Positions 2,916 through 46,231 of a stretch of 64,000 bases of DNA are shown piece by piece; the stretch's first letter is position 1, and every line of letters begins with the position of its first letter. The DNA comes from Bacteroidota bacterium (GTDB taxonomy: Bacteria > Bacteroidota > Bacteroidia > Bacteroidales > JAADJA01): positions 46,070 to 110,069 of the forward strand of contig JAHLKX010000008.1 in assembly GCA_020444515.1 (NCBI GenBank). Direction: 5' to 3'. A program made the translations under genes and the position numbers. Under the pieces are notes generated by a model, which saw nothing but the letters and a program-made list of their open reading frames with translations, made no database searches and was not told where the DNA came from.

Positions 2916-3055
2916 GATACACTGTCAATTAGCTATAGAAACAACCAAATTGAGTTTTTGTTTAACTATTATTTTTTATTTTTAAACAAGCGATGAACTC
3001 AGCATAAATTAAAAAAAAAACTCAAAAAAACTTGACAAAGGGTCATTGGTTATTG

Positions 3056-3063
3056 TATCTTTG
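3056..3063 (+). promoter_or_regulatory. Bacteroidota sigma70 -7 promoter element (TAnnTTTG) for the TetR operon
   Basis: TATCTTTG at 3056-3063, with TTG about 25 bp upstream (cttgacaa), matching the -33/-7 architecture. Confidence 0.7.
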
Positions 3064-3142
3064 ACCGACCGTTCATTCAATAACATTTTAATTACAGAAG
3101 TATTGTTTGAAAGGCATTATAAACTGACTAATCGTTCAATTA
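3062..3142. promoter_or_regulatory. Two putative TetR operator copies
   Basis: Imperfect 18-bp palindrome TGACCGACCGTTCATTCA (3062-3079; 12/18 self-complementary) overlapping the -7 element, and a second copy TGACTAATCGTTCAATTA (3125-3142) just before the ATG. Confidence 0.6.
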
Positions 3143-3145
3143 AAA

Positions 3146-3721
3146 ATGGCACCAAAAACAAGTGAACAGTATAGCGAGATCCGGGAAATCCGAACACGCC
3201 AAATAATGGAAACAGCCTTACAGCTTTTTGCTGCCAATGGATACGCCAATACTTCCATCAGTCAGATTGCTACCAAAGCAAAAATCAGCAAAGGTTTGAT
3301 GTATAACTACTTTTCGAGCAAAGAGGATTTACTAAAAACTATATTTGAGCAGGGTTTTAAAGAAATGTTTGATTTGTTTGATCCCAATAAGGATGGCGTT
3401 CTCACGAGGGAAGAATTCACCTATTTTATTGAAGAGACCTTTTACCTTATGAGCCGAAAGCGGGACTTCTATAAACTTTATTTTGCCCTGATGATGCAAC
3501 CAACTGTTTGGAAAAAATTAAAAATTCAAATCCATGATATCATTGCTCCATTCCTAAAAATCATGGAAGATTATTATGAGAAAAAGGGAGCTGCCAATCC
3601 TGCACTGGAAGCTGTGCTTGTGGGAGCTTTATTGGATGGAATTGGATTCAACTTCGTTTTCAATCCCGATATGTATCCATTGGATGATGTAAAAAAACTG
3701 GTCATAGAACGTTTTGTATAA
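3146..3721 (+). CDS. TetR/AcrR family transcriptional regulator containing an EF-hand-like motif
   Basis: N-terminal TetR HTH (ALQLFAANGYANTSISQIA..A.ISKGLMYNYFSSKEDL), followed by FKEMFDLF-DPNKDGVLTREE-FTYFI. Confidence 0.92.
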   Translation: MAPKTSEQYSEIREIRTRQIMETALQLFAANGYANTSISQIATKAKISKGLMYNYFSSKEDLLKTIFEQGFKEMFDLFDPNKDGVLTREEFTYFIEETFYLMSRKRDFYKLYFALMMQPTVWKKLKIQIHDIIAPFLKIMEDYYEKKGAANPALEAVLVGALLDGIGFNFVFNPDMYPLDDVKKLVIERFV

Positions 3722-3737
3722 CTTGAAATATTAGAAA

Positions 3738-4499
3738 ATGATGAAATTGATTTTAAAACCACTTTTGGCCTGCTTGATTGCAACAGTCACATTAACCACT
3801 AACGCCCAGGAACTGACTGCCCTGGAAATCGTGAAAAAAGCTGATCAAAAAACCCGTGGTGAAACCAGCCAGGGGAGTATGACCATGAAGATTGTCAGAC
3901 CTGATTGGGATAGAACCGTAGAAATGAAATCATGGTCAAAAGGGGATGATTATTTTCTCATCTATATCACAGCCCCCGCAAAGGATAAAGGACAGGTATT
4001 TCTGAAAAGAGAGAAAGAAATGTGGAATTGGGTACCATCCATCGATCGAATGATCAAGATACCTCCTTCTATGATGATGCAATCGTGGATGGGAAGCGAC
4101 TTCACCAATGACGACCTGGTAAAGCAATCAAGTATTGTTAAAGATTACACGCATAAATTGCTTGGTGAAGAAATGATTCGGGGCGAAGAGTGCTATAAAA
4201 TAGAGCTTACACCATTGCCCGATGCACCTGTCGTATGGGGCAAAATAATATCATGGATCACCAAAGATGGTTTTAACAACTGGAAAAATGAATATTACGA
4301 CGAGGACATCGTCCTTATAAACATCGAGAATGCTTATGATTTGAAAGATTTCGGAGACCGCACACTACCCAGTCGCATTGAAATAGAGCCTGTGGATGAA
4401 CCCGGGAACAAAACGGTGCTGATCATGAGTGACATGCAATTCAACAAGCCCATTGATGATGGATTTTTCACACAACAAAACATGAAAAGGGTACGGTAA
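3738..4499 (+). CDS. Outer-membrane lipoprotein-sorting protein (LolA-like family)
   Basis: Signal peptide and the family signature 'SWMGSDFTNDDL'; precedes LolC/E-like permeases. Confidence 0.85.
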   Translation: MMKLILKPLLACLIATVTLTTNAQELTALEIVKKADQKTRGETSQGSMTMKIVRPDWDRTVEMKSWSKGDDYFLIYITAPAKDKGQVFLKREKEMWNWVPSIDRMIKIPPSMMMQSWMGSDFTNDDLVKQSSIVKDYTHKLLGEEMIRGEECYKIELTPLPDAPVVWGKIISWITKDGFNNWKNEYYDEDIVLINIENAYDLKDFGDRTLPSRIEIEPVDEPGNKTVLIMSDMQFNKPIDDGFFTQQNMKRVR

Positions 4500-4523: not shown

Positions 4524-5750
4524 ATGAAAACCTATTTCAAACTGGCATGGCGCAACCTCTGGCGAAATAAACGGCGATCATTGATTACCATTGCTTCCAT
4601 TTTTTTCGGCGTTTTCTTTGCTATATTCCTCTCATCCATTCAAAAGGGGTCTTTCGAAAACATCCTTGAAAATATGGTGAAGTTTTATTCTGGTTATATC
4701 CAAATTCAAGGTGAAAAATATAAGGACAACAAAAGCCTGAATCAAAGTTTTGAAGATAATGATCTGCTTAGAGGCAAAGTAGCAAGTGAAACCAATGTGA
4801 CCCATTTTGCCAGCCGGATCGAATCCTTTGCCCTTTCAGCCTTTAAAGATCAAACCTATGCTGCTGTTGTTTTAGGAATAGAACCAGCTCAGGAAAACCA
4901 GATTTCAGAAATTTCGAAATGGATCTCCCAGGGAACATATTTCACCAAAAGCAATGAGGTAAATGGTGTTCTGATTGGAAGTCAGTTGGCCGAAAATCTG
5001 GGTATCGGCGTGAATGATACGTTGGTACTGATTGGCCAGGGTTATCATGGACAAACAGCAGCAGGTAAATTTCCCGTCCTTGGACTTTTAAAATTCCCTT
5101 TACCCGATCTCAATAAACAAATGATTTATATGTCACTTGAATCGGCCAGAAATTTCTATTCGATGCCGGACAGGTCAACTTCAATGGTTTTGATGGTCGA
5201 TAATGTGGACAAAATAGATAAAACCATTGATCACCTTGAACAAGCCATAGATAAAAATTTAAAAGTCTATTCATGGAAAGAGATTCAACCCGAACTTGAA
5301 AATTTCATTCAGGGTAAACTGGCTGGGGGTAAAATCATGAAGGGAATCCTCTTTATGGTCATCGGGTTTGGTATTTGGGGAACCATCATTATGCTAATGG
5401 CAGAGCGGAAGCGGGAACTCGGGATCATAATAGCTCTTGGTGTTCGTAAAATAAGGGTGATGCGAATCATTGTTCTGGAATCATTTTTAATCGGATTTAT
5501 TGGTGTTGTCATTGGCTCCATAACTAGCCTTCCACTTGTTTCCTATCTTTATTTACACCCAGTTCATGTTAGCGGCAGTATCAAAGAAACATACGAATCC
5601 ATGGGGTTTGAACCGGTATTAAAATTCAGTATTCATCCTGATAATTTTATCAGTCCGGCAATAACCGTATTTATATTGTTTACGGCAATTACATTATATG
5701 CTGTATGGTATATTGCAAGATTAAAAACGGCTTCAGCACTTAGGGCATGA
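4524..5750 (+). CDS. ABC transporter permease 1 (LolC/E, MacB/FtsX family)
   Basis: 'AWRNLWRNKRRS' start, large periplasmic domain, 'ERKRELG...ALG' FtsX motif, 4 TM. Confidence 0.9.
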   Translation: MKTYFKLAWRNLWRNKRRSLITIASIFFGVFFAIFLSSIQKGSFENILENMVKFYSGYIQIQGEKYKDNKSLNQSFEDNDLLRGKVASETNVTHFASRIESFALSAFKDQTYAAVVLGIEPAQENQISEISKWISQGTYFTKSNEVNGVLIGSQLAENLGIGVNDTLVLIGQGYHGQTAAGKFPVLGLLKFPLPDLNKQMIYMSLESARNFYSMPDRSTSMVLMVDNVDKIDKTIDHLEQAIDKNLKVYSWKEIQPELENFIQGKLAGGKIMKGILFMVIGFGIWGTIIMLMAERKRELGIIIALGVRKIRVMRIIVLESFLIGFIGVVIGSITSLPLVSYLYLHPVHVSGSIKETYESMGFEPVLKFSIHPDNFISPAITVFILFTAITLYAVWYIARLKTASALRA

Positions 5751-5795
5751 TTCCGTATATTGATAGAAAATTATTTAACAAGAAATTCAATAGCA

Positions 5796-7013
5796 ATGAA
5801 TGTTATTAAAATAGCCTGGAGAAACTTATGGAGAAATTCACGCCGAACCGCGATCACGATGGCATCTGTATTTTTTGGTGTTATCCTTTCCGTAGCTATG
5901 ACATCGATGCAGTATGGCTCTTATGATTCAATGATTGATAATGTCGTTAAGTTTTATTCAGGTTATGCACAGATTTTTGATCGTGCATATCATGAAAACA
6001 AAACCATCAACAACACGATGGAGCTCACTGACTCAATCAGAAAAACGGTTCAGCAAACAGAGGGGGTAACGCATATTGCCTCGAGGCTTGAATATTTTGC
6101 ACTGGCATCTTCTGATGAAATTACCAAAGGAGCCATGATCCTCGGAATTGACCCGATCCAGGAAAGTTATGTAACAGATGTAGCCAAATGGGTAGAAAAG
6201 GGACAATATCTCAAAGAAGGCGATGACGGAGTTTTGGTATCGGTCAACCTGGCCAATTATCTCAAAATAAATATAGGTGACACAATCGTATTATATGGCC
6301 AGGGATATCATGGTGTAACTGCTGCCGACCTTTTCCCGGTCAGGGGAATCCTTAAATTTCCTTTACCAGAACTGAACAACCAGATGATCTATATGGACAT
6401 TGGGACCTGTCAACGTTATTTTGGAGCCGAAAACAGAATCAGTTCACTGGTGATAATGGTCGATGACCACAATGACCTACCTGCTGTTATGCGATCATTA
6501 AAAGCAAGCATTAAAGATCCATTAACTGTTATGTCATGGGACGAACTTCAACCCGAACTTGTCCAGATGATAGATGCCGACCGTGCAGGAGGTGTTTTCA
6601 CCAAAATAATCTTATACATGGTAGTGGCCTTTGGTATATTTGGTACGATTATCATGATGATATCTGAAAGGATCAGAGAACTGGGTGTGACCATTGCCAT
6701 TGGCATGCAACGATTTAAAATGGCAGGTATTCTTTTTACAGAAACAGTCTTAACCGGTTTGCTGGGCGCTGCATCAGGAATTATTGGAAGTATTCCAATC
6801 GTGGTTTACTTTTACAATAATCCGATCAAACTCACGGGCGATGCGGCACAAACAATGATCGATATGGGAATGGAACCGTTGATGTATTTCAGCTTAAGTC
6901 CTTTTGTTTTTTACAACCAGGCCATCACTGTTTTCTTTATCACCGTTGTTATTGGTGTTTTCCCGGTTTATAAAGCTTTCAATCTGAAAATTAACCAGGC
7001 ATTGAAAGCATAA
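5796..7013 (+). CDS. ABC transporter permease 2 (LolC/E family), paralog of permease 1
   Basis: 'AWRNLWRNSRRT', 'GQGYHG.TAA..FPV.G.LKFPLP.LN', 'ERIRELG..IAIG'. Start refined to the ATG at 5796. Confidence 0.9.
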   Translation: MNVIKIAWRNLWRNSRRTAITMASVFFGVILSVAMTSMQYGSYDSMIDNVVKFYSGYAQIFDRAYHENKTINNTMELTDSIRKTVQQTEGVTHIASRLEYFALASSDEITKGAMILGIDPIQESYVTDVAKWVEKGQYLKEGDDGVLVSVNLANYLKINIGDTIVLYGQGYHGVTAADLFPVRGILKFPLPELNNQMIYMDIGTCQRYFGAENRISSLVIMVDDHNDLPAVMRSLKASIKDPLTVMSWDELQPELVQMIDADRAGGVFTKIILYMVVAFGIFGTIIMMISERIRELGVTIAIGMQRFKMAGILFTETVLTGLLGAASGIIGSIPIVVYFYNNPIKLTGDAAQTMIDMGMEPLMYFSLSPFVFYNQAITVFFITVVIGVFPVYKAFNLKINQALKA

Positions 7014-7046: not shown

Positions 7047-8264
7047 ATGATTTTTCAAGTTTCATGGCGAAATATTTGGCGAAACAAGGTCAGGAGCCTT
7101 GTGGTCATATCAGCAATTACAGTCGGCATATTCGCAGGTGTATGGTCGGCGGCTTTCTTCAAGGGTATGATGAACCAACGGATCGATAAAGTGATCAACA
7201 CTGAATTATCGAGTATGCAGGTACATGAACCTGATTTTAGAAAAACCTCAGAATTCTCAAATTATATTCCCGATGCCGAAATACTGGCAGATCAGATCAG
7301 AGAAATCCCGGAGGTACGTGGTGTGAGTAACCGCATGGTGGTGCAATCCATGGTGGCTTCGGCCGAAACGGCTTCCGGAGTTGTGATTCTTGGCATTGAT
7401 CCTGAACAGGAATCAAAAGTAACCAATATTTATAATAAGATCATTGATGGTGCCTACTTTGATGGGGTTTCAAGAAATCCGGTTGTGATCGGTAAAAAAC
7501 TGGCTGAGAAACTCAATGTTAAAGTAAGGTCGAAAATAGTGATCACCCTTCAGGACCTGGATAACAATATTGTTTCGGCTGCATTTCGTGTTGCCGGAAT
7601 CTATACCACCAATAATAATATATACGATGAAAGTCATGTATTTGTGCAACACAGTGATCTATCCAATTTAACTGTTTTCCCGATAGGGGCAGGACATGAA
7701 TTAGCCATAAGCCTGAATGACAATCAAACATTACCACAGGTGCAGGCTCAAGTAACCCAAATGGCCACCGGCATGGAAGTCATGAATTGGAAAGAACTCA
7801 GCCCCGAGATGAGTTACCTCACTGAAACCATGGATATGTATATGTATGTTTTCATTATCATAATTCTGCTGGCGCTGCTTTTCGGTATTATCAATACAAT
7901 GTTGATGGTGGTGATGGAACGAACCAAAGAAATAGGAATGCTGATGGCCATCGGGATGCACAGGGCGAAAATATTCTGGATGATCATCGTTGAATCTGTC
8001 ATGCTTTCATTGGTTGGTGGAATTTTAGGAATTATGGTCGGAGCCTTAGTTTCAAAGATTGGTGAAACACATCCTATAGATCTTTCTATGTGGGCTGAAG
8101 GCTATCAATCGCTGGGATATGATTCCTTTGTTTATACCACCTTGCAACCCGAGCTGATCATCAATGTTGCGGTGCTGGTAATTATTACAGGTGTAATTGC
8201 AGCCCTTTATCCAGCCTATAAAGCCCTTAAAAATGATCCGGCTGATGCACTGAGAATTGAATAA
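7047..8264 (+). CDS. ABC transporter permease 3 (LolC/E family)
   Basis: 'SWRNIWRNKVRS', 'GIINTMLMVVMERTKEIGMLMAIGM', C-terminal 'YPAYKA...DPADALR'. Confidence 0.9.
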   Translation: MIFQVSWRNIWRNKVRSLVVISAITVGIFAGVWSAAFFKGMMNQRIDKVINTELSSMQVHEPDFRKTSEFSNYIPDAEILADQIREIPEVRGVSNRMVVQSMVASAETASGVVILGIDPEQESKVTNIYNKIIDGAYFDGVSRNPVVIGKKLAEKLNVKVRSKIVITLQDLDNNIVSAAFRVAGIYTTNNNIYDESHVFVQHSDLSNLTVFPIGAGHELAISLNDNQTLPQVQAQVTQMATGMEVMNWKELSPEMSYLTETMDMYMYVFIIIILLALLFGIINTMLMVVMERTKEIGMLMAIGMHRAKIFWMIIVESVMLSLVGGILGIMVGALVSKIGETHPIDLSMWAEGYQSLGYDSFVYTTLQPELIINVAVLVIITGVIAALYPAYKALKNDPADALRIE

Positions 8265-8319: not shown

Positions 8320-9003
8320 ATGAAAGTTATCGAAATCAAAGACCTGGTTAAAATTTATAACAGCAGTGAGGTTCAAGTGAAGGCAGTGAATGGGATCAAT
8401 CTCGATTTTGAAGAAGGTGAATTTGCCGCAGTGGTGGGACCATCGGGTTCGGGTAAAACAACTTTTTTGAACATGGTAGGTGGTCTCGACCGACCCACAT
8501 CCGGTGAAGTGATCGTAGGAGGCACCAATATTTGGGAATTGAAATCCCGCAAACTGATCGACTTCAGACTGCGGAATATCGGGTTTGTATTCCAGGCATA
8601 CAACCTCATACCGGTTCTAACAGCCAGGGAAAATGTAGAATTTATCATGCATCTCCAGGGACGTGACAAACATGAAAGAAATCAACGAGTAAATGAATTG
8701 CTAACCGCAGTTGGTCTTGGCGAACGGATGGAGAGCCGCCCCAGTAAACTGTCGGGTGGCCAGCAACAAAGGGTCGCCGTTGCCAGGGCTCTGGCTTCTA
8801 AACCCAAATTTATTTTGGCTGATGAACCAACAGCCAACCTCGACTCTAAATCGACTGAAAATTTACTCGACATGATGGAGAAACTCAATAAAGAAGAAAA
8901 TATCACTTTTATTTTCAGCACCCATGATGCCCGGGTGGTTAAAAAAGCACGTCGCGTGATTACCCTGGATGACGGTAAAGTAACAAGTGATGAGAAAAAA
9001 TAA
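8320..9003 (+). CDS. ABC transporter ATP-binding protein (LolD/MacB type)
   Basis: Walker A GPSGSGKT, signature LSGGQQQRVA, Walker B ILADEPT, H-loop STHD. Confidence 0.95.
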   Translation: MKVIEIKDLVKIYNSSEVQVKAVNGINLDFEEGEFAAVVGPSGSGKTTFLNMVGGLDRPTSGEVIVGGTNIWELKSRKLIDFRLRNIGFVFQAYNLIPVLTARENVEFIMHLQGRDKHERNQRVNELLTAVGLGERMESRPSKLSGGQQQRVAVARALASKPKFILADEPTANLDSKSTENLLDMMEKLNKEENITFIFSTHDARVVKKARRVITLDDGKVTSDEKK

Positions 9004-9006
9004 GCA

Positions 9007-10167
9007 ATGCGGTTCAAGGTATTATCGGTCTTAGTTTTGCTGGCACTCTCTGCATCTAATCTATGGGCCCAGGATAAAAAAGTGGAGTTTTCAGGTCACT
9101 TGCAAAACCTGAATACTTTATGGATTCAAGATGTGAGTTCGGAATGGTATACAACCGGGTCAATATACAACCGGCTGAATTTGAAATGGTACCCCAATGA
9201 GAGGTGGACCTTTTCGGCCAGCGCCCGCAATGTGGCTAATTACGGACAGCTCATTTATAACTATTATCCTTTATATTCAGACCTGTTGGTTCAGGATGAC
9301 GGATTTGTTGATTTAACTGGAACCATAGCAAGGGATTCCTCCTATATTCTTTACTCAAACCTCGATCGATTAAATCTCAAGTTCACCAAAGGTAAATTTG
9401 AAGCCACAGTAGGACGACAACGCATCAATTGGGGAATAAACATGGTTTGGAATCCCAATGATATATTCAATACTTTTAATTTTTATGATTTTGATTATGT
9501 GGAGCGGCCCGGTTGCGATGCCATCAGACTGCAATATTATACAGGCTATGCATCGGGCTATCAGATCGCTTTCAAAATGGATGCCGACAATGAAATCACA
9601 GCAGCAGGTATGTACAGTTTTAATCAATGGAATTACGACTTCCAGGTTCTCGGTGGTGTGATGACTTCAGATGTGGTTTTGGGAGCAGGCTGGTCGGGTT
9701 ATATCAAAAATGCAGGCTTTACTGGAGAAGCTTCTTATTTCCGGGATAAAGATAATTTTGCAGATACTACAGGGATTTTTGTTGCATCGATCGGAGGTAG
9801 TTATACATTTAGAAACAGCTTGATGGTAAACGCTTCAATTCTTTATAATTCTGATGGGACAACCGGAAAAGCAGGATATGGATCCTCATTTATTGTTCTG
9901 CAAGATGTATCACCAAAAAGTTTTTCACCTGCCAGGGCATCTCTGATGGGACAACTCTCCTACCCCATCACACCCCTCATTCAGGCAGACCTGAGCGGCA
10001 TTGTCAATCCTTACGACGGTTCTTTTTTCATAGGACCATCTGTGACTTTTTCACTCACGGATAATATTGGATTATTGCTTACTTCGCAAATTTTTGCGGG
10101 AGAAACAGGAACTGAATTTGGTGGATATGGGCAATTGTATTATTTAAGATTGAAATGGTCTTTTTAG
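9007..10167 (+). CDS. Predicted outer-membrane beta-barrel protein, last gene of the export operon
   Basis: Signal peptide, amphipathic strands, 'GRQRINWG...WNPND.F', C-terminal 'YLRLKWSF'; 3 bp after the ATPase. Confidence 0.75.
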   Translation: MRFKVLSVLVLLALSASNLWAQDKKVEFSGHLQNLNTLWIQDVSSEWYTTGSIYNRLNLKWYPNERWTFSASARNVANYGQLIYNYYPLYSDLLVQDDGFVDLTGTIARDSSYILYSNLDRLNLKFTKGKFEATVGRQRINWGINMVWNPNDIFNTFNFYDFDYVERPGCDAIRLQYYTGYASGYQIAFKMDADNEITAAGMYSFNQWNYDFQVLGGVMTSDVVLGAGWSGYIKNAGFTGEASYFRDKDNFADTTGIFVASIGGSYTFRNSLMVNASILYNSDGTTGKAGYGSSFIVLQDVSPKSFSPARASLMGQLSYPITPLIQADLSGIVNPYDGSFFIGPSVTFSLTDNIGLLLTSQIFAGETGTEFGGYGQLYYLRLKWSF

Positions 10168-10180
10168 CCCTTAAAGTGTT

Positions 10181-12124
10181 TTAATTCTTCAAAAACTTAA
10201 CAATGTAAACCCTGCTTTTTGAAGTTAAACTCACAATGTAAACCCCCGGTTCCAATTGATCCAGTTCAAGAGAATACTTATACTTCACATCCGTTATCCG
10301 AAACTTTCTTTTCAACACAATATGACCCTTCAAATCTAAAATTTGTAATTGAACAATTTCTTTTTCAAAACCATTCATTTCAATGGTTGCTTTTCCGATA
10401 ACCGGATTGGGATAAATGGATGCATTGAAAATATCTTTGTTGTTAAAAAGGGATATACCTGTTGCTACAGAATGATTTACCCAGTAATTAAAAATGCCGC
10501 TATACTGACCGAGGGTAAGATCCGGATCACCATCTCCATCCAGGTCAGCCAATGCAGGGGTAGTATTTTGCTCCCCCGATATACCCATGAAAATTTCATT
10601 GTTCTGGATCCATTCACCACCCTGATTCTCAAAATAAGTCAGTGAACCACTAAGATTGCCACAAAGGATATCGACATCACCATCCATATCAACATCGTAA
10701 ACAGTGGGCACACAATTCATCCCAACATCAATGGTACCAAAAAAATTTGCTACGACAGACCATTCAGGATCTTCCGGTGTTCCACCGTTTTGGATATACG
10801 TTAAATTTCCCGATTCATTTCCGGCAATGATATCCAAATCTTCATCACCATCAAAATCTGCAAGGCGGGGCGCCGACCAACCACCCAAAGCCACCGCTTG
10901 AAGAAAACTGGGTTCCTTAACAAATCCGTCGCCTGTATTTCTATGATAGTAGAGTCCCCCGTTCAGATCGCCAACAATGGCATCCGGAAGCCCATCATTG
11001 TTTACATCTCCCATTGCAACCGCACTATATATTGAATGTTTAAGAGATGCAAAAGGCGAACTGTTTTCTTCCCATGCAGGACCTGTTATGGTACCTGTAT
11101 TTTCAAAATATTTGATATCACCAAGCTGGGTTCCGGTAAACATATCCAGGTCTCCATCATTGTCAAAATCAAAAAAATAAGGATTGCTGGCACCGCCAAT
11201 ATCAATGACACCCCCGAACAAGGTAGTATTCTCAGTCCAGTCGGGTGCTGATGACGTACCGGTATTCAAGTAATATTTTAATGGTCCGGCATAGGTTCCG
11301 AAAACAAGGTCTGTCAGGCCGTCATCATCCAGGTCGGCCAACCCGGGCGAATTCCAGTAGCTGTCATTTCCCAAACCATCAAAAGCGGTTGTATTTATCT
11401 CCCAAACTGCTGTCGTTGAATTACCGGTATTTTCGTAATATACAAATCCATAGCTATCTCGCCCTAACAGCAAATCCTGGTCTTCGTCCTGATCGATATC
11501 ACAAAAATGAGGATACGCATACAGGCCCACATCACCGACCTCACTCACGTTATTCTCATTAAATTCCACCTCCTGGGGGGTTCCCATATTCATATAAATT
11601 TTAACAAGACCACTCTCGCTAATCCCGACGACCATATCATAATCGCCATCGCCATCCAGGTCACCAAAGTCAGGTATTGGATTTTGTCCGACTTCAAGAC
11701 CATTAAAAATACCAGGCTGTTTTTCGAAAACCGGGCTCAATGATGTGCCTATATTCTTGTAGAGGTTAAGCCCCGTAAAACCACCGCTTATCAAATCAAG
11801 ATCATCATCCGAGTCAATATCACTGAACACGCCTACTTCCGCATCAAGCGACTGAACATTTTCGAAAATATCGGCACCCGGAACAAACATTGGAGAAGCA
11901 GATGATCCGGTGTTTTCAAGATACAACGGATTTTCACCAACACTCCCGAGAATCATGTCAAAATCATCATCCCCATCCAGATCGGCAAAGCGGGGCTGCG
12001 AAAAAGTAAGACTGGGGACGCCGCTTGGATTAAAAATATTATCATTCTGGGTCCAGGGTTGTCCTTTTACCTGGGAATTAATGAGGATTGTAGTGATAAA
12101 TAAGATGAGAAATAAATTTTTCAT
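10181..12124 (-). CDS. FG-GAP/VCBS-repeat secreted protein with T9SS type A C-terminal domain
   Basis: Signal peptide, ten DxDxDGDxD-type repeats, CTD 'IYPNPV...L..GVYIV...KFLKN'. Confidence 0.88.
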   Translation of the reverse strand: MKNLFLILFITTILINSQVKGQPWTQNDNIFNPSGVPSLTFSQPRFADLDGDDDFDMILGSVGENPLYLENTGSSASPMFVPGADIFENVQSLDAEVGVFSDIDSDDDLDLISGGFTGLNLYKNIGTSLSPVFEKQPGIFNGLEVGQNPIPDFGDLDGDGDYDMVVGISESGLVKIYMNMGTPQEVEFNENNVSEVGDVGLYAYPHFCDIDQDEDQDLLLGRDSYGFVYYENTGNSTTAVWEINTTAFDGLGNDSYWNSPGLADLDDDGLTDLVFGTYAGPLKYYLNTGTSSAPDWTENTTLFGGVIDIGGASNPYFFDFDNDGDLDMFTGTQLGDIKYFENTGTITGPAWEENSSPFASLKHSIYSAVAMGDVNNDGLPDAIVGDLNGGLYYHRNTGDGFVKEPSFLQAVALGGWSAPRLADFDGDEDLDIIAGNESGNLTYIQNGGTPEDPEWSVVANFFGTIDVGMNCVPTVYDVDMDGDVDILCGNLSGSLTYFENQGGEWIQNNEIFMGISGEQNTTPALADLDGDGDPDLTLGQYSGIFNYWVNHSVATGISLFNNKDIFNASIYPNPVIGKATIEMNGFEKEIVQLQILDLKGHIVLKRKFRITDVKYKYSLELDQLEPGVYIVSLTSKSRVYIVKFLKN

Positions 12125-23447: not shown

Positions 23448-24971
<1,524 letters not shown>

Positions 24972-25156
24972 AGAGCATCTACTTATGATCCTGATATTCA
25001 ATATTAGGATTGATATTTGCTACAAGCTTTTACTTCTTTTTTATATATTATCCCAAACGAGTACAAGTGAGGGCTCTTCCTTGGAGTTGATGGTTTATCC
25101 ATAATCTCTTAAAAGAGCTTCGGGCATGAAGGGAAGAACCTATCAACACGGAATTT

Positions 25157-25230
25157 AGTCCCGTAGCTCAGTTGGTTAGAGCACTACACTGATAATGTAG
25201 GGGTCCGCAGTTCAAGTCTGCGCGGGACTA
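25157..25230 (+). tRNA. tRNA-Ile (GAT)
   Basis: AGTCCCG...CGGGACT acceptor stem, CTGATAA anticodon loop, GTTCAAGT T-loop; in the ITS. Confidence 0.97.
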
Positions 25231-25240
25231 CTAGCTCTTT

Positions 25241-25314
25241 GGGGAATTAGCTCAGCTGGCTAGAGCACCTGCCTTGCACGCAGGGGGTCATCGGTTCGAA
25301 TCCGATATTCTCCA
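25241..25314 (+). tRNA. tRNA-Ala (TGC)
   Basis: GGGGAAT...ATTCTCC acceptor with G3:U70, TTGCA anticodon loop, GTTCGAATC T-loop. Confidence 0.97.
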
Positions 25315-25416
25315 CAAACTCTCACTGTTTTAAGAGAGGTCCTTTACGGGATAAGTTCTTTGACATATTGAAAGAAAATACAGCGAAATATTTAAGAATC
25401 ACAATAAGATATAACA

Positions 25417-28327
<2,911 letters not shown>

Positions 28328-28435
28328 TGTCATGCTTTTTTTGATTCTTATCTGGATTTCTGTATTTTCTTTCATATATATGTCATTTAAGGTATTGATT
28401 CACCTTTGTCATTGACTTCGGTGAACGAAAGATTT

Positions 28436-28546
<111 letters not shown>

Positions 28547-44995: not shown

Positions 44996-46231
44996 ATGAT
45001 TAACTTTGAGAAGTTTGAATTGGAGAATGGGCTGAAAGTTATCGTACATCACGACCGGTCGACACAAATTGTGGCGGTGAACCTCCTATATGATGTAGGA
45101 GCACGTGACGAAAATCCAGACAGTACCGGATTTGCACACTTATTTGAACACCTGATGTTTGGCGGTTCGGTTCACATACCAAAATACGATACCCCACTGG
45201 AACGTGCCGGTGGTGAGAACAATGCTTTTACCAATAACGACATTACCAATTATTACCTCACCATACCCAAACAGAACCTGGAATTGGCATTCTGGCTTGA
45301 ATCGGATCGGATGCTTGACCTGGCCTTTTCTGAGAAAAGCCTGGAAGTACAACGCAATGTTGTTATTGAAGAGTTTAAACAATCTTATTTGAATCAGCCT
45401 TATGGTGATGTCTGGTTATTGCTTCGTCCGATGGCCTATAAGACCCATCCATACCAGTGGGCCACCATTGGAAAGGATATTTCACACATAGAGAAAGCGA
45501 CGATGGAGGATGTACGGAATTTCTATCAAAGATTTTACAACCCCAACAATGCCATCCTCACCATTGCAGGGGATGTGGAAACTGATCAAATTAAAAAGCT
45601 GGCTGAAAAGTGGTTTGGATCGATCCCATCCGGAAACGGGTATAGCAGGAATATTCCAAAGGAACCCCGGCAGATTGAAGCCCGACAGTTAAGCGTACAA
45701 AGAAACGTTCCATTTGATGCGCTTTACAAAGCTTACCACATGTGTTCGCGTGATGATAAGCAATATCATACAACCGATCTGGTATCTGATATTCTATCAA
45801 ATGGCGACTCATCCCGACTTTTTAACCGGCTGGTAAAAGAGAAAAATATGTTTAGCGATATACATGCTTATATTACCGGTGATCGGGACGAGGGTTTGTT
45901 TATCTTTTCAGGCAAACTGGTAAAAGGGGTCACCATGGAAGAGGCAGAAAAAGCGGTGCAGGAAGAAATTCAACAGATCACTACAAAACCCGTTGAGATC
46001 GATGAACTGGAGAAAGTGAAAAATAAAATCGAATCAACCCTGGAGTTTTCGGAAATCAGTGTTTTAAATAAAGCAATGAACCTTTCCTATTCTGAGCTTC
46101 TTGGCGATGCAGACCTCATTAATCAGGAAAAAAGTTTATATACAGCCGTTACGCGCGAGGGAATCATGGAGACTGCCAAAGAAATTTTCAGGGAAGATAA
46201 TTGTTCAACCCTTTATTATTACGCAAATTGA
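44996..46231 (+). CDS. M16 family zinc peptidase, catalytic subunit
   Basis: Inverted zinc motif HLFEH, 'NAFT', 'ESDRM'. Confidence 0.92.
   Translation: MINFEKFELENGLKVIVHHDRSTQIVAVNLLYDVGARDENPDSTGFAHLFEHLMFGGSVHIPKYDTPLERAGGENNAFTNNDITNYYLTIPKQNLELAFWLESDRMLDLAFSEKSLEVQRNVVIEEFKQSYLNQPYGDVWLLLRPMAYKTHPYQWATIGKDISHIEKATMEDVRNFYQRFYNPNNAILTIAGDVETDQIKKLAEKWFGSIPSGNGYSRNIPKEPRQIEARQLSVQRNVPFDALYKAYHMCSRDDKQYHTTDLVSDILSNGDSSRLFNRLVKEKNMFSDIHAYITGDRDEGLFIFSGKLVKGVTMEEAEKAVQEEIQQITTKPVEIDELEKVKNKIESTLEFSEISVLNKAMNLSYSELLGDADLINQEKSLYTAVTREGIMETAKEIFREDNCSTLYYYAN

Follow-up and report, generated by a model that had tools for sequence, protein, structure and literature searches.

A 64,000-nucleotide stretch of DNA from a Bacteroidota bacterium (GenBank assembly GCA_020444515.1, contig JAHLKX010000008.1, forward-strand positions 46,070 to 110,069; called the window here in its whole length, with positions counted from its first letter) contains a gene for a TetR-family repressor (191 amino acids; 3146..3721, + strand) whose helices a4 and a5 are joined by a canonical 12-residue EF-hand loop (DPNKDGVLTREE, residues 79-90; 3380..3415, +), recognizable from the sequence itself, from the Pfam EF-hand_1 match, from conservation and from a structural model. 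The reading we favor overall, to which we would give a probability of about one half, is that the protein is an autorepressor with a metal input, likely Ca2+, through this a4-a5 EF-hand. The parts of this reading differ in strength: the protein is, with high probability, a homodimeric TetR-family autorepressor of the export operon downstream of it; the loop probably binds some metal ion; and the proposal that this ion is Ca2+ acting as a regulatory signal is a tentative one, for which we would put the odds somewhat short of even.

The EF-hand loop

Codons 79-90 (nucleotides 3380-3415) read D-P-N-K-D-G-V-L-T-R-E-E, filling all the canonical ligand and scaffold positions (D79, N81, D83, G84, L86, T87 and E90). 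The segment matches the PROSITE EF_HAND_1 pattern, here applied as a regular expression, and Pfam EF-hand_1 (PF00036) covers residues 71-96 with a score of 30.7 bits and E 1.8e-7, its curated cut-off being 25.4 bits; EF-hand_6 is narrowly passed (25.1 bits, cut-off 25), and the pair model EF-hand_7 stays below its cut-off (22.8 bits against 30). A preliminary description of this DNA, made from its letters, had proposed such a loop between helices 4 and 5 with all canonical positions occupied, and both points hold: the first by the PROSITE-type expression and the EF-hand_1 score above cut-off, the second by an AlphaFold2 model in which DSSP assigns residues 59-78 to helix a4 (3320..3379, +), which enters the EF-hand and connects the DNA-binding domain to the ligand domain, and residues 88-104 to helix a5 (3407..3457, +), the exiting helix. 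Between the two lies a nine-residue coil (79-87), with helix resuming at residue 88, or loop position 10, a helix-loop-helix arrangement judged from predicted secondary structure. In canonical EF-hands, the exit helix likewise begins at loop position 10.

Compared with 177,635 PDB sequences, the 35-residue segment from 66 to 100 finds EF-hand calcium sensors only: the best matches are to KChIP2 (5e-8) and also to Entamoeba calcium-binding proteins (CaBPs), calsenilin/DREAM (2E6W, 1.2e-6), NCS-1 and calmodulin. A more specific likeness of the flanking helices to those of calmodulin, also proposed in the preliminary description, does not survive comparison with relatives: the entering helix FKEMFDLF is peculiar to this sequence, with residues 71-77 varying by 1.9-3.3 bits and F78 alone fairly conserved, and the proline at loop position 2 is a departure from calmodulin.

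Conservation of the loop

Three sets of relatives were compared. A word-indexed search gave 421 homologs at E <= 1e-5, and in the best 120 of these (48-100% identity) the motif stands at the same place in 118; P0062, one of the two exceptions, has Ser instead of Gly at position 6. Because a word index could favor homologs that share the loop, phmmer was also run without an index over 1.84 billion cluster representatives, with 148 matches at E <= 1e-30; among the best 150 compared (33-53% identity), 60 have the motif in the corresponding loop between a4 and a5. The others mostly have a loop of the same length that lacks the ligands, and several of these resemble decayed hands. EF-hand_1 itself is matched by 70 of the 150 members of alignment A2. 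Finally, relatives are encoded by 528 candidate stretches of species-representative genomes, and the motif is present in 76 of the best 80 loci; the other four are L040, with Glu at position 3, L063, whose sole mismatch to the pattern is the residue following the loop, L065, in which the loop is degenerate, and L077, from which no open reading frame (ORF) was extracted and which is counted as lacking the motif.

A position-by-position comparison of 79 species-level sequences (the window and 78 loci) gives entropies of 0, 0.8, 0.27, 0.33, 0.43, 1.0 and 0.1 bits at positions 1, 3, 5, 6, 8, 9 and 12, and of 1.46, 2.38, 2.12, 3.22 and 2.38 bits at the non-ligand positions 2, 4, 7, 10 and 11. D79 is invariant, and E90, D83 and G84 are found in 78, 76 and 75 of the 79 sequences; D79 and E90 rank 12th and 20th in conservation among the 191 positions of the protein, alongside residues of the helix-turn-helix (HTH). 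Conservation of D79, N81, D83 and E90 among orthologs, which the preliminary description had singled out for checking, is therefore what was found. Synonymous sites, on the other hand, are saturated: Gly84 is encoded by GGC, GGT, GGG and GGA in 18, 18, 21 and 18 sequences and Leu86 by all six Leu codons, codons having turned over while the ligand residues were kept. At position 12 the pattern permits Asp as well as Glu, yet every one of the 254 motif-bearing loops has Glu there. By this comparative evidence, the ligand positions are under purifying selection.

The regulator and its fold

Pfam TetR_N (PF00440) is found on residues 20-64 (3203..3337, +; E 2.3e-16, 59.7 bits against a cut-off of 24), the HTH DNA-binding region, where the model has helices 6-31, 38-44 and 49-55; the same domain is matched by all 150 members of alignment A2. 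The AlphaFold2 model, built from a 150-sequence alignment, is all-helical, with a mean predicted local distance difference test (pLDDT) score of 92.6 and a predicted template-modeling (pTM) score of 0.85, and continues from the three N-terminal helices with seven more (59-78, 88-104, 106-116, 119-125, 129-146, 152-172 and 179-190), ten in all. When the whole model is compared by Foldseek, all of the matches listed belong to the TetR family, the best being Bacillus FadR chains at template-modeling (TM) scores of 0.71-0.77, and a PDB sequence search agrees. The TetR_N match and these TetR-only fold matches bear out the family assignment of the preliminary description. Because the NCBIfam FadR model (NF053878) scores 59.5 bits, far under its curated equivalog cut-off of 200, the protein is FadR-like in fold, yet not a FadR. 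Its gene is present in a single copy in its own genome, the nearest paralog being just 28% identical.

A predicted homodimer scores 0.72, against 0.00 for the best of three controls, with an interface made of residues 110-119 and 151-186; the runs share at least 95% of contacts, and partner pLDDT is at least 83. Of proteins solved as one-chain pairs, 20 of 30 reach the mark used, as compared with 1 of 23 among those solved as single chains, counts that apply only roughly here, the prediction having used a custom alignment with two Ca ions included; solved TetR dimers also exist, so that the pass may reflect model memory. None of the confident dimer contacts involves residues 79-90, and every motif-bearing sequence carries one EF-hand motif per chain. 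Because the loop is outside the predicted interface residues, the two hands of the dimer do not appear to pair in the model.

Promoter and operator

Bacteroidetes promoters follow a spacing rule for their -33 and -7 elements. Upstream of the regulator gene are a putative -33 element, TTGACA (3032..3037, +), identified from sequence, with 'cTTGACaa' visible by eye at a like distance in many orthologous upstream regions, and a putative -7 box, TATCTTTG (3056..3063, +), to be compared with the Bacteroides -7 consensus TAnnTTTG as it is given in PMC4747536. These are accompanied by two copies of an 18-bp palindromic operator (consensus TGACyrAmCGTTCArTCA): box 1, TGACCGACCGTTCATTCA (3062..3079, +), overlaps the -7 box and has 0 mismatches to TGACYNNNCGTTCANTCA, and box 2, TGACTAATCGTTCAATTA (3125..3142, +), lies 3 nucleotides before the ATG and has 1 mismatch to it. 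The stretch from 3050 to 3145, proposed in the preliminary description as a target for electrophoretic mobility shift assays, contains both copies.

The operator is a general feature of these loci. Within 220 nucleotides upstream, a site with at most five mismatches to the perfect palindrome TGACTGAACGTTCAGTCA is found in all 80 loci, as compared with 5 of 1600 shuffles, and one with at most three mismatches in 65 of the 80; 26 loci have two sites. The 80 loci have 106 operator sites in all, and 73 of these follow a TAnnTT, which makes the -7 box overlap the operator's first TG. Because of this overlap with the -7 consensus, the repressor would be expected to sit on its promoter.

Three loci (L005, L007 and L058) have an upstream region filled with short tandem-like repeats ('caatgacc' in L005, 'atcaa/aatc' in L007). 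Their best operator match is poor, and their promoters may be rearranged.

The export operon

The preliminary description had tied the regulator to an export operon downstream, a connection that comparison with other genomes supports. In 78 of the 80 loci a LolA-like gene immediately follows the TetR gene, the other two loci ending less than 200 nucleotides past the TetR gene, and the complete set of LolA-like, permease, ATPase and outer-membrane genes is present in all 57 of the 57 loci with at least 6.5 kb of downstream sequence.

In the window, all on the + strand, the first structural gene encodes a LolA-like periplasmic protein (253 amino acids; 3738..4499; Pfam LolA_like PF17131, E 2.4e-57), followed by three MacB/LolCE-type permease genes (4524-5750, 5760-7013 and 7047-8264; Pfam MacB_PCD and FtsX in each), an ATP-binding cassette (ABC) ATPase (227 amino acids; 8320..9003; Pfam ABC_tran, E 9.2e-35) and, as the last gene, a predicted outer-membrane barrel (386 amino acids; 9007..10167). 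The permeases miss the NCBIfam lolCE cut-off of 362 at 94-147 bits, and the ATPase misses that of LolD (307.75) at 233 bits: the operon is LolCDE-like or MacB-like, and not the housekeeping Lol system. The 386-residue protein has no Pfam or NCBIfam match; its Protein Atlas look-alikes (score 0.99) carry the automatic names 'alginate export domain' or 'putative porin', which are a lead only. By summed length, about 49 of the 57 loci have two permeases and 8 have three, as in the window, where the first two are paralogous. Permeases of about 470 residues occur in several loci, with a periplasmic-domain insertion seen as split tblastn matches. We found no published work in the open literature on LolA-like proteins together with Bacteroidetes and an ABC transporter.

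Short metatranscriptomic contigs from four runs match parts of the TetR and LolA-like genes at 99% identity or more (3077-3242, 3097-3320, 3383-3556, 3724-3886 and 3746-4028); these contigs, from sediment samples of two studies, come from RNA libraries and can show neither start, strand nor true transcription, so that they are no firm evidence of expression, and gaps in their cover, such as that upstream of 3077, carry no meaning. The DNA of the full window is present in two freshwater-sediment runs, a possible source, and 61% of its sampled words are present in one soil run.

Proposed mechanism

In the mechanism we favor, the repressor would occlude its promoter by binding the 18-bp operator over the -7 box. 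A metal, most likely Ca2+, would be held in the loop by D79, N81, D83, the carbonyl of V85, T87 (via water) and E90 (bidentate), and binding of the ion would fix the angle between a4 and a5; the fixed geometry would then shift a4 and the two DNA-reading heads, altering affinity for the operator. The last step is proposed because in TetR and QacR helix a4 acts as a lever on the DNA-reading heads. By the model, the EF-hand sits at the very junction that couples the ligand domain to the DNA-binding head in TetR proteins. The metal would thus be an input to exporter expression, probably beside a hydrophobic ligand in the FadR-like pocket.

Several observations weigh against this reading, beginning with the relatives that do without the loop. 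In a sample of 401 genomes of the phylum, 42 match a motif-less query at E <= 1e-20, and a LolA-like gene, sometimes divergent, adjoins the motif-less relative in 18 of the 19 non-window loci fetched. Because motif-less relatives also adjoin a LolA-like gene, the pairing of regulator and exporter is, by gene neighborhood, older and wider than the EF-hand. A FastTree phylogeny of 147 representatives (unrooted, loop columns removed, 4 of 151 rows left out as shorter than 170 residues) is weakly resolved, with 13 of 144 inner branches well supported. The motif is clustered on it: parsimony requires 25 changes, as compared with 45.1 for shuffled labels, and none of 500 shuffles needs so few. Its state changes at least three times on well-supported branches, to which the unrooted tree gives no direction. 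Sister pairs such as P0121, with an intact loop, and P0125 (DSNKAN...) point to recent decay. Ligand-less relatives that keep both the loop length and the LolA-like neighbor, together with the repeated changes of state, indicate that the ion site is an optional addition to a working repressor, and that the basic regulator can do without metal binding. For anyone wishing to follow the family experimentally, cultured carriers of orthologs include Carboxylicivirga linearis FB218 (L074) and two Saccharicrinis strains (L045 and L046).

The chemistry of the loop raises further difficulties. Isolated EF-hands are usually weak Ca2+ binders, and the hand described here is unpaired, with one motif per chain and a loop outside the dimer contacts. 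Loop position 2 is Pro in the window (P80) and in 90 of 118, 34 of 60 and 57 of 76 motif-bearing relatives in the three sets; proline is unusual at this position in EF-hands and lowers the Ca2+ affinity of helix-loop-helix peptides, as reported in PMC9362731; in lanmodulin, too, it reduces the response to Ca2+, and a proline back-mutation in an engineered calmodulin sensor brings back its calcium response, according to PMC10949232. By analogy, Pro2 may reduce the calcium affinity of the TetR loop as well. Nothing in the operon is visibly calcium-related. The main inducer may, moreover, be an organic molecule, a suggestion made because the nearest solved folds bind acyl-CoA.

Alternative explanations

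One alternative takes this last point as its center, and although we consider it unlikely, it deserves to be set out in full: constitutively bound Ca2+ or Mg2+ would stabilize the a4-a5 connection, an organic, probably lipid-like inducer would occupy the FadR-like pocket, and the ion would be no signal at all. Stabilization is a common role of calcium bound by Dx[DN]xDG loops, a motif found convergently in many folds, as stated in PMC3123361. The closest solved folds are the acyl-CoA-binding FadR proteins, and motif-less members of the family regulate the same kind of operon. Less easily accommodated is the location of the protein in the cytoplasm, where free Ca2+ in bacteria is sub-micromolar and would not keep an EF-hand of ordinary affinity filled. 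The repeated decay of the loop at constant length also fits an optional regulatory input better than a site critical to the fold, and the model places the site precisely where a4 meets a5, at the allosteric junction.

Less probable still is that no metal is bound, and that the DPNKDG...E sequence has been kept as a rigid turn, helix cap or protein-contact surface that mimics an EF-hand. A proline at position 2, atypical of calcium-binding EF-hands, and a hand without a partner speak for it; conservation, however, tracks the ligand positions singly, including Gly6 and the bidentate Glu12 (254/254), with neighboring surface positions varying, and a plain turn would have no need of acidic or amide groups at positions 1, 3, 5 and 12. 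Relatives also achieve the same loop length with unrelated sequences.

A third alternative, to which we attach only a slight probability, starts from the same proline: the loop would be a lanmodulin-type site tuned from Ca2+ towards trivalent lanthanides or some other ion, and the repressor would answer that ion. Pro2 is a hallmark of lanmodulin, and is described in PMC10949232 as critical for its lanthanide-over-calcium specificity. The window's own 35-residue segment matches lanmodulin in the PDB search (E 1.9e-5), and the loop segment of the relative P0111 (DPNKDGVLDIPE, 23 residues; protein 49% identical) has lanmodulin as its two best matches among the 177,635 PDB sequences (8fns_A at 1.6e-8 and 6mi5_X at 3e-8), the third-best being far behind at 1.2e-4. 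The window, however, has Asn3 and Thr9 in place of the Asp3 and Asp9 of lanmodulin; the full signature D-P-D-x-D-G-x-h-[DE]-x-x-E is found in 0 of 118, 1 of 60 and 0 of 76 motif-bearing loops; and about a quarter to two fifths of these loops lack Pro2 altogether (28/118, 26/60 and 19/76). An XoxF/MxaF-type pyrroloquinoline quinone (PQQ) alcohol dehydrogenase was not found in the 94.7%-complete genome (TIGR03075: best score 20.7 bits, cut-off 480), which thus offers no support for lanthanide use. The TetR protein is, in addition, cytoplasmic, whereas lanmodulin is described as periplasmic in PMC11848957.

A subgroup of the family combines Pro2 with an acidic residue at position 9 (DPNKDGVLE/D...). 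It includes P0097, P0101, P0103, P0111 and P0120 and, among the genome loci, L009, L014, L017, L028, L033, L049, L067 and L076. By loop sequence, this subgroup is closer to lanmodulin than the window is.

Finally, a lone pattern match is weak evidence because the expression also matches shuffled proteins (22 matches in a crude ORF set from the same genome, of 3588 ORFs and 1.52 million residues, against 4-9 in five shuffles, the 21 others lying in proteins of 475-1855 residues, none with proline at position 2), yet a chance match of this short, false-positive-prone pattern in one protein is refuted, practically beyond doubt, by its presence at the same place in 118/120, 76/80 and 60/150 relatives, down to 33% identity and with codon turnover.

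Neighboring genes

Divergent from the regulator gene are two carotenoid genes on the - strand, crtI (1443-2915; Amino_oxidase, E 1.3e-38) and crtB (596-1480; SQS_PSY, E 3e-39). The operator on the tetR promoter is about 150 bp from the crtI start, and the preliminary description had suggested that the regulator might act on these genes as well. This link is rejected: crtI/crtB are upstream in only 3 of the 59 loci with at least 3 kb of upstream sequence.

Beside the crt genes is a 175-residue ORF (59-586, -) with no Pfam or NCBIfam match. Three further loci (L004, L042 and L043) have crtB/crtI, and in each of them this ORF is present too, at 34-46% identity. Convergent with the end of the operon is a 647-residue ORF (10181-12124, -) with many D-x-D-x-D-G-type repeats (DLDGDDDFD, DIDSDDDLD, DLDGDGDYD), which resembles calcium-blade repeat proteins of the FG-GAP/VCBS type with a sorting domain at the C-terminus. 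Further along is a complete rRNA operon (23448-28545, +; 16S at 23448-24969, 23S at 25416-28331 and 5S at 28436-28545), with two tRNAs inside it (25157-25230 and 25241-25314).

Significance and comparison with known systems

The mechanistic basis of calcium as a bacterial second messenger is still elusive, in the words of a 2026 study (PMC13599509), which names the finding of molecules that transduce intracellular Ca2+ signals as a next goal. If the proposal made here is correct, an EF-hand at an allosteric hinge would be the shortest possible route from a cytoplasmic ion to gene expression; a ligand-gated fold would have gained a new input through local evolution of a 12-residue loop; and synthetic biology would have a compact metal-responsive TetR switch. 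That bacteria have in these TetR proteins their first transcription factors to sense Ca2+ within a single polypeptide is a proposition we would rate at rather less than an even chance, and as far likelier than the lanthanide alternative. Should the proline affect selectivity in the way known from lanmodulin, these proteins would be relevant to metal sensing beyond calcium, and if lanthanides were in fact the signal, a clade of sediment Bacteroidota would be switching an envelope exporter on rare-earth ions. If the loop is merely structural, on the other hand, what is left is an oddity confined to one TetR subfamily.

A search of the open literature, with subscription journals outside its coverage, found no EF-hand TetR and no calcium-binding or calcium-responsive TetR; the publications there with both 'TetR family' and 'EF-hand' treat the two separately. 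In public sequence collections, PF00036 is already placed on many of these proteins by automatic Pfam annotation.

The closest solved relatives are the Bacillus FadR/YsiA proteins (3WHB, 3WHC with stearoyl-CoA, 1VI0, 5GPA/5GP9) and Aquifex aq_1058 (2EH3), which share with the window protein the HTH and the all-helical two-domain fold. Repressors of this type also have a dimer formed via the last helices, predicted here as well, and a palindromic operator at their own promoter. Unlike the window protein, none of them is reported with an EF-hand. When aligned with the window protein, 2EH3 has no ligand residues between a4 and a5 and is two residues shorter there. FadR regulates fatty-acid degradation genes, whereas the window regulator precedes an envelope exporter.

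There are precedents for metals in the switching of TetR-family repressors, as proposed here. TetR(D) is switched by [Mg-tetracycline]+, with the Mg2+ chelated by the drug and the signal passing via a4 to the DNA-binding heads, and SczA (Zn) and ComR (Cu) are metal-responsive members of the family with other sets of ligands. We know of no helix-loop-helix EF-hand in TetR(D), SczA or ComR.

In what it would do, the window protein has its closest analogue in DREAM, a transcriptional repressor released from DNA by Ca2+, and the EF loops of DREAM/calsenilin/KChIP3 and of the KChIP and NCS proteins are also the best PDB matches to its a4-loop-a5 segment. The likeness covers about 25 residues only: these are eukaryotic proteins of unrelated fold, with four EF-hands in two pairs and without an HTH. 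Lanmodulin (6MI5, 8FNS) shares Pro2 and the D-P-[DN]-K-D-G core with the window loop; it differs in having four hands rather than one, Asp3 and Asp9 rather than Asn3 and Thr9, a periplasmic location and no DNA binding.

The Dx[DN]xDG loops of folds other than the EF-hand (Rigden et al., 2011; PMC3123361), for which multiple convergent origins are argued, are likewise local calcium-type loops in unrelated domains, and a term search of that survey returned no mention of TetR. In comparison with them, the window site is flanked by two helices and has Glu12, making a full EF-hand, and its host is a cytoplasmic transcription factor. Pseudomonas aeruginosa has several candidate or proven Ca2+ sensors that alter gene expression, namely EfhP, LadS and CarRS/BqsRS, as described in PMC13599509. 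These work through separate partners or as membrane kinases; the window protein would instead unite the ion loop and the DNA-binding domain in one polypeptide.

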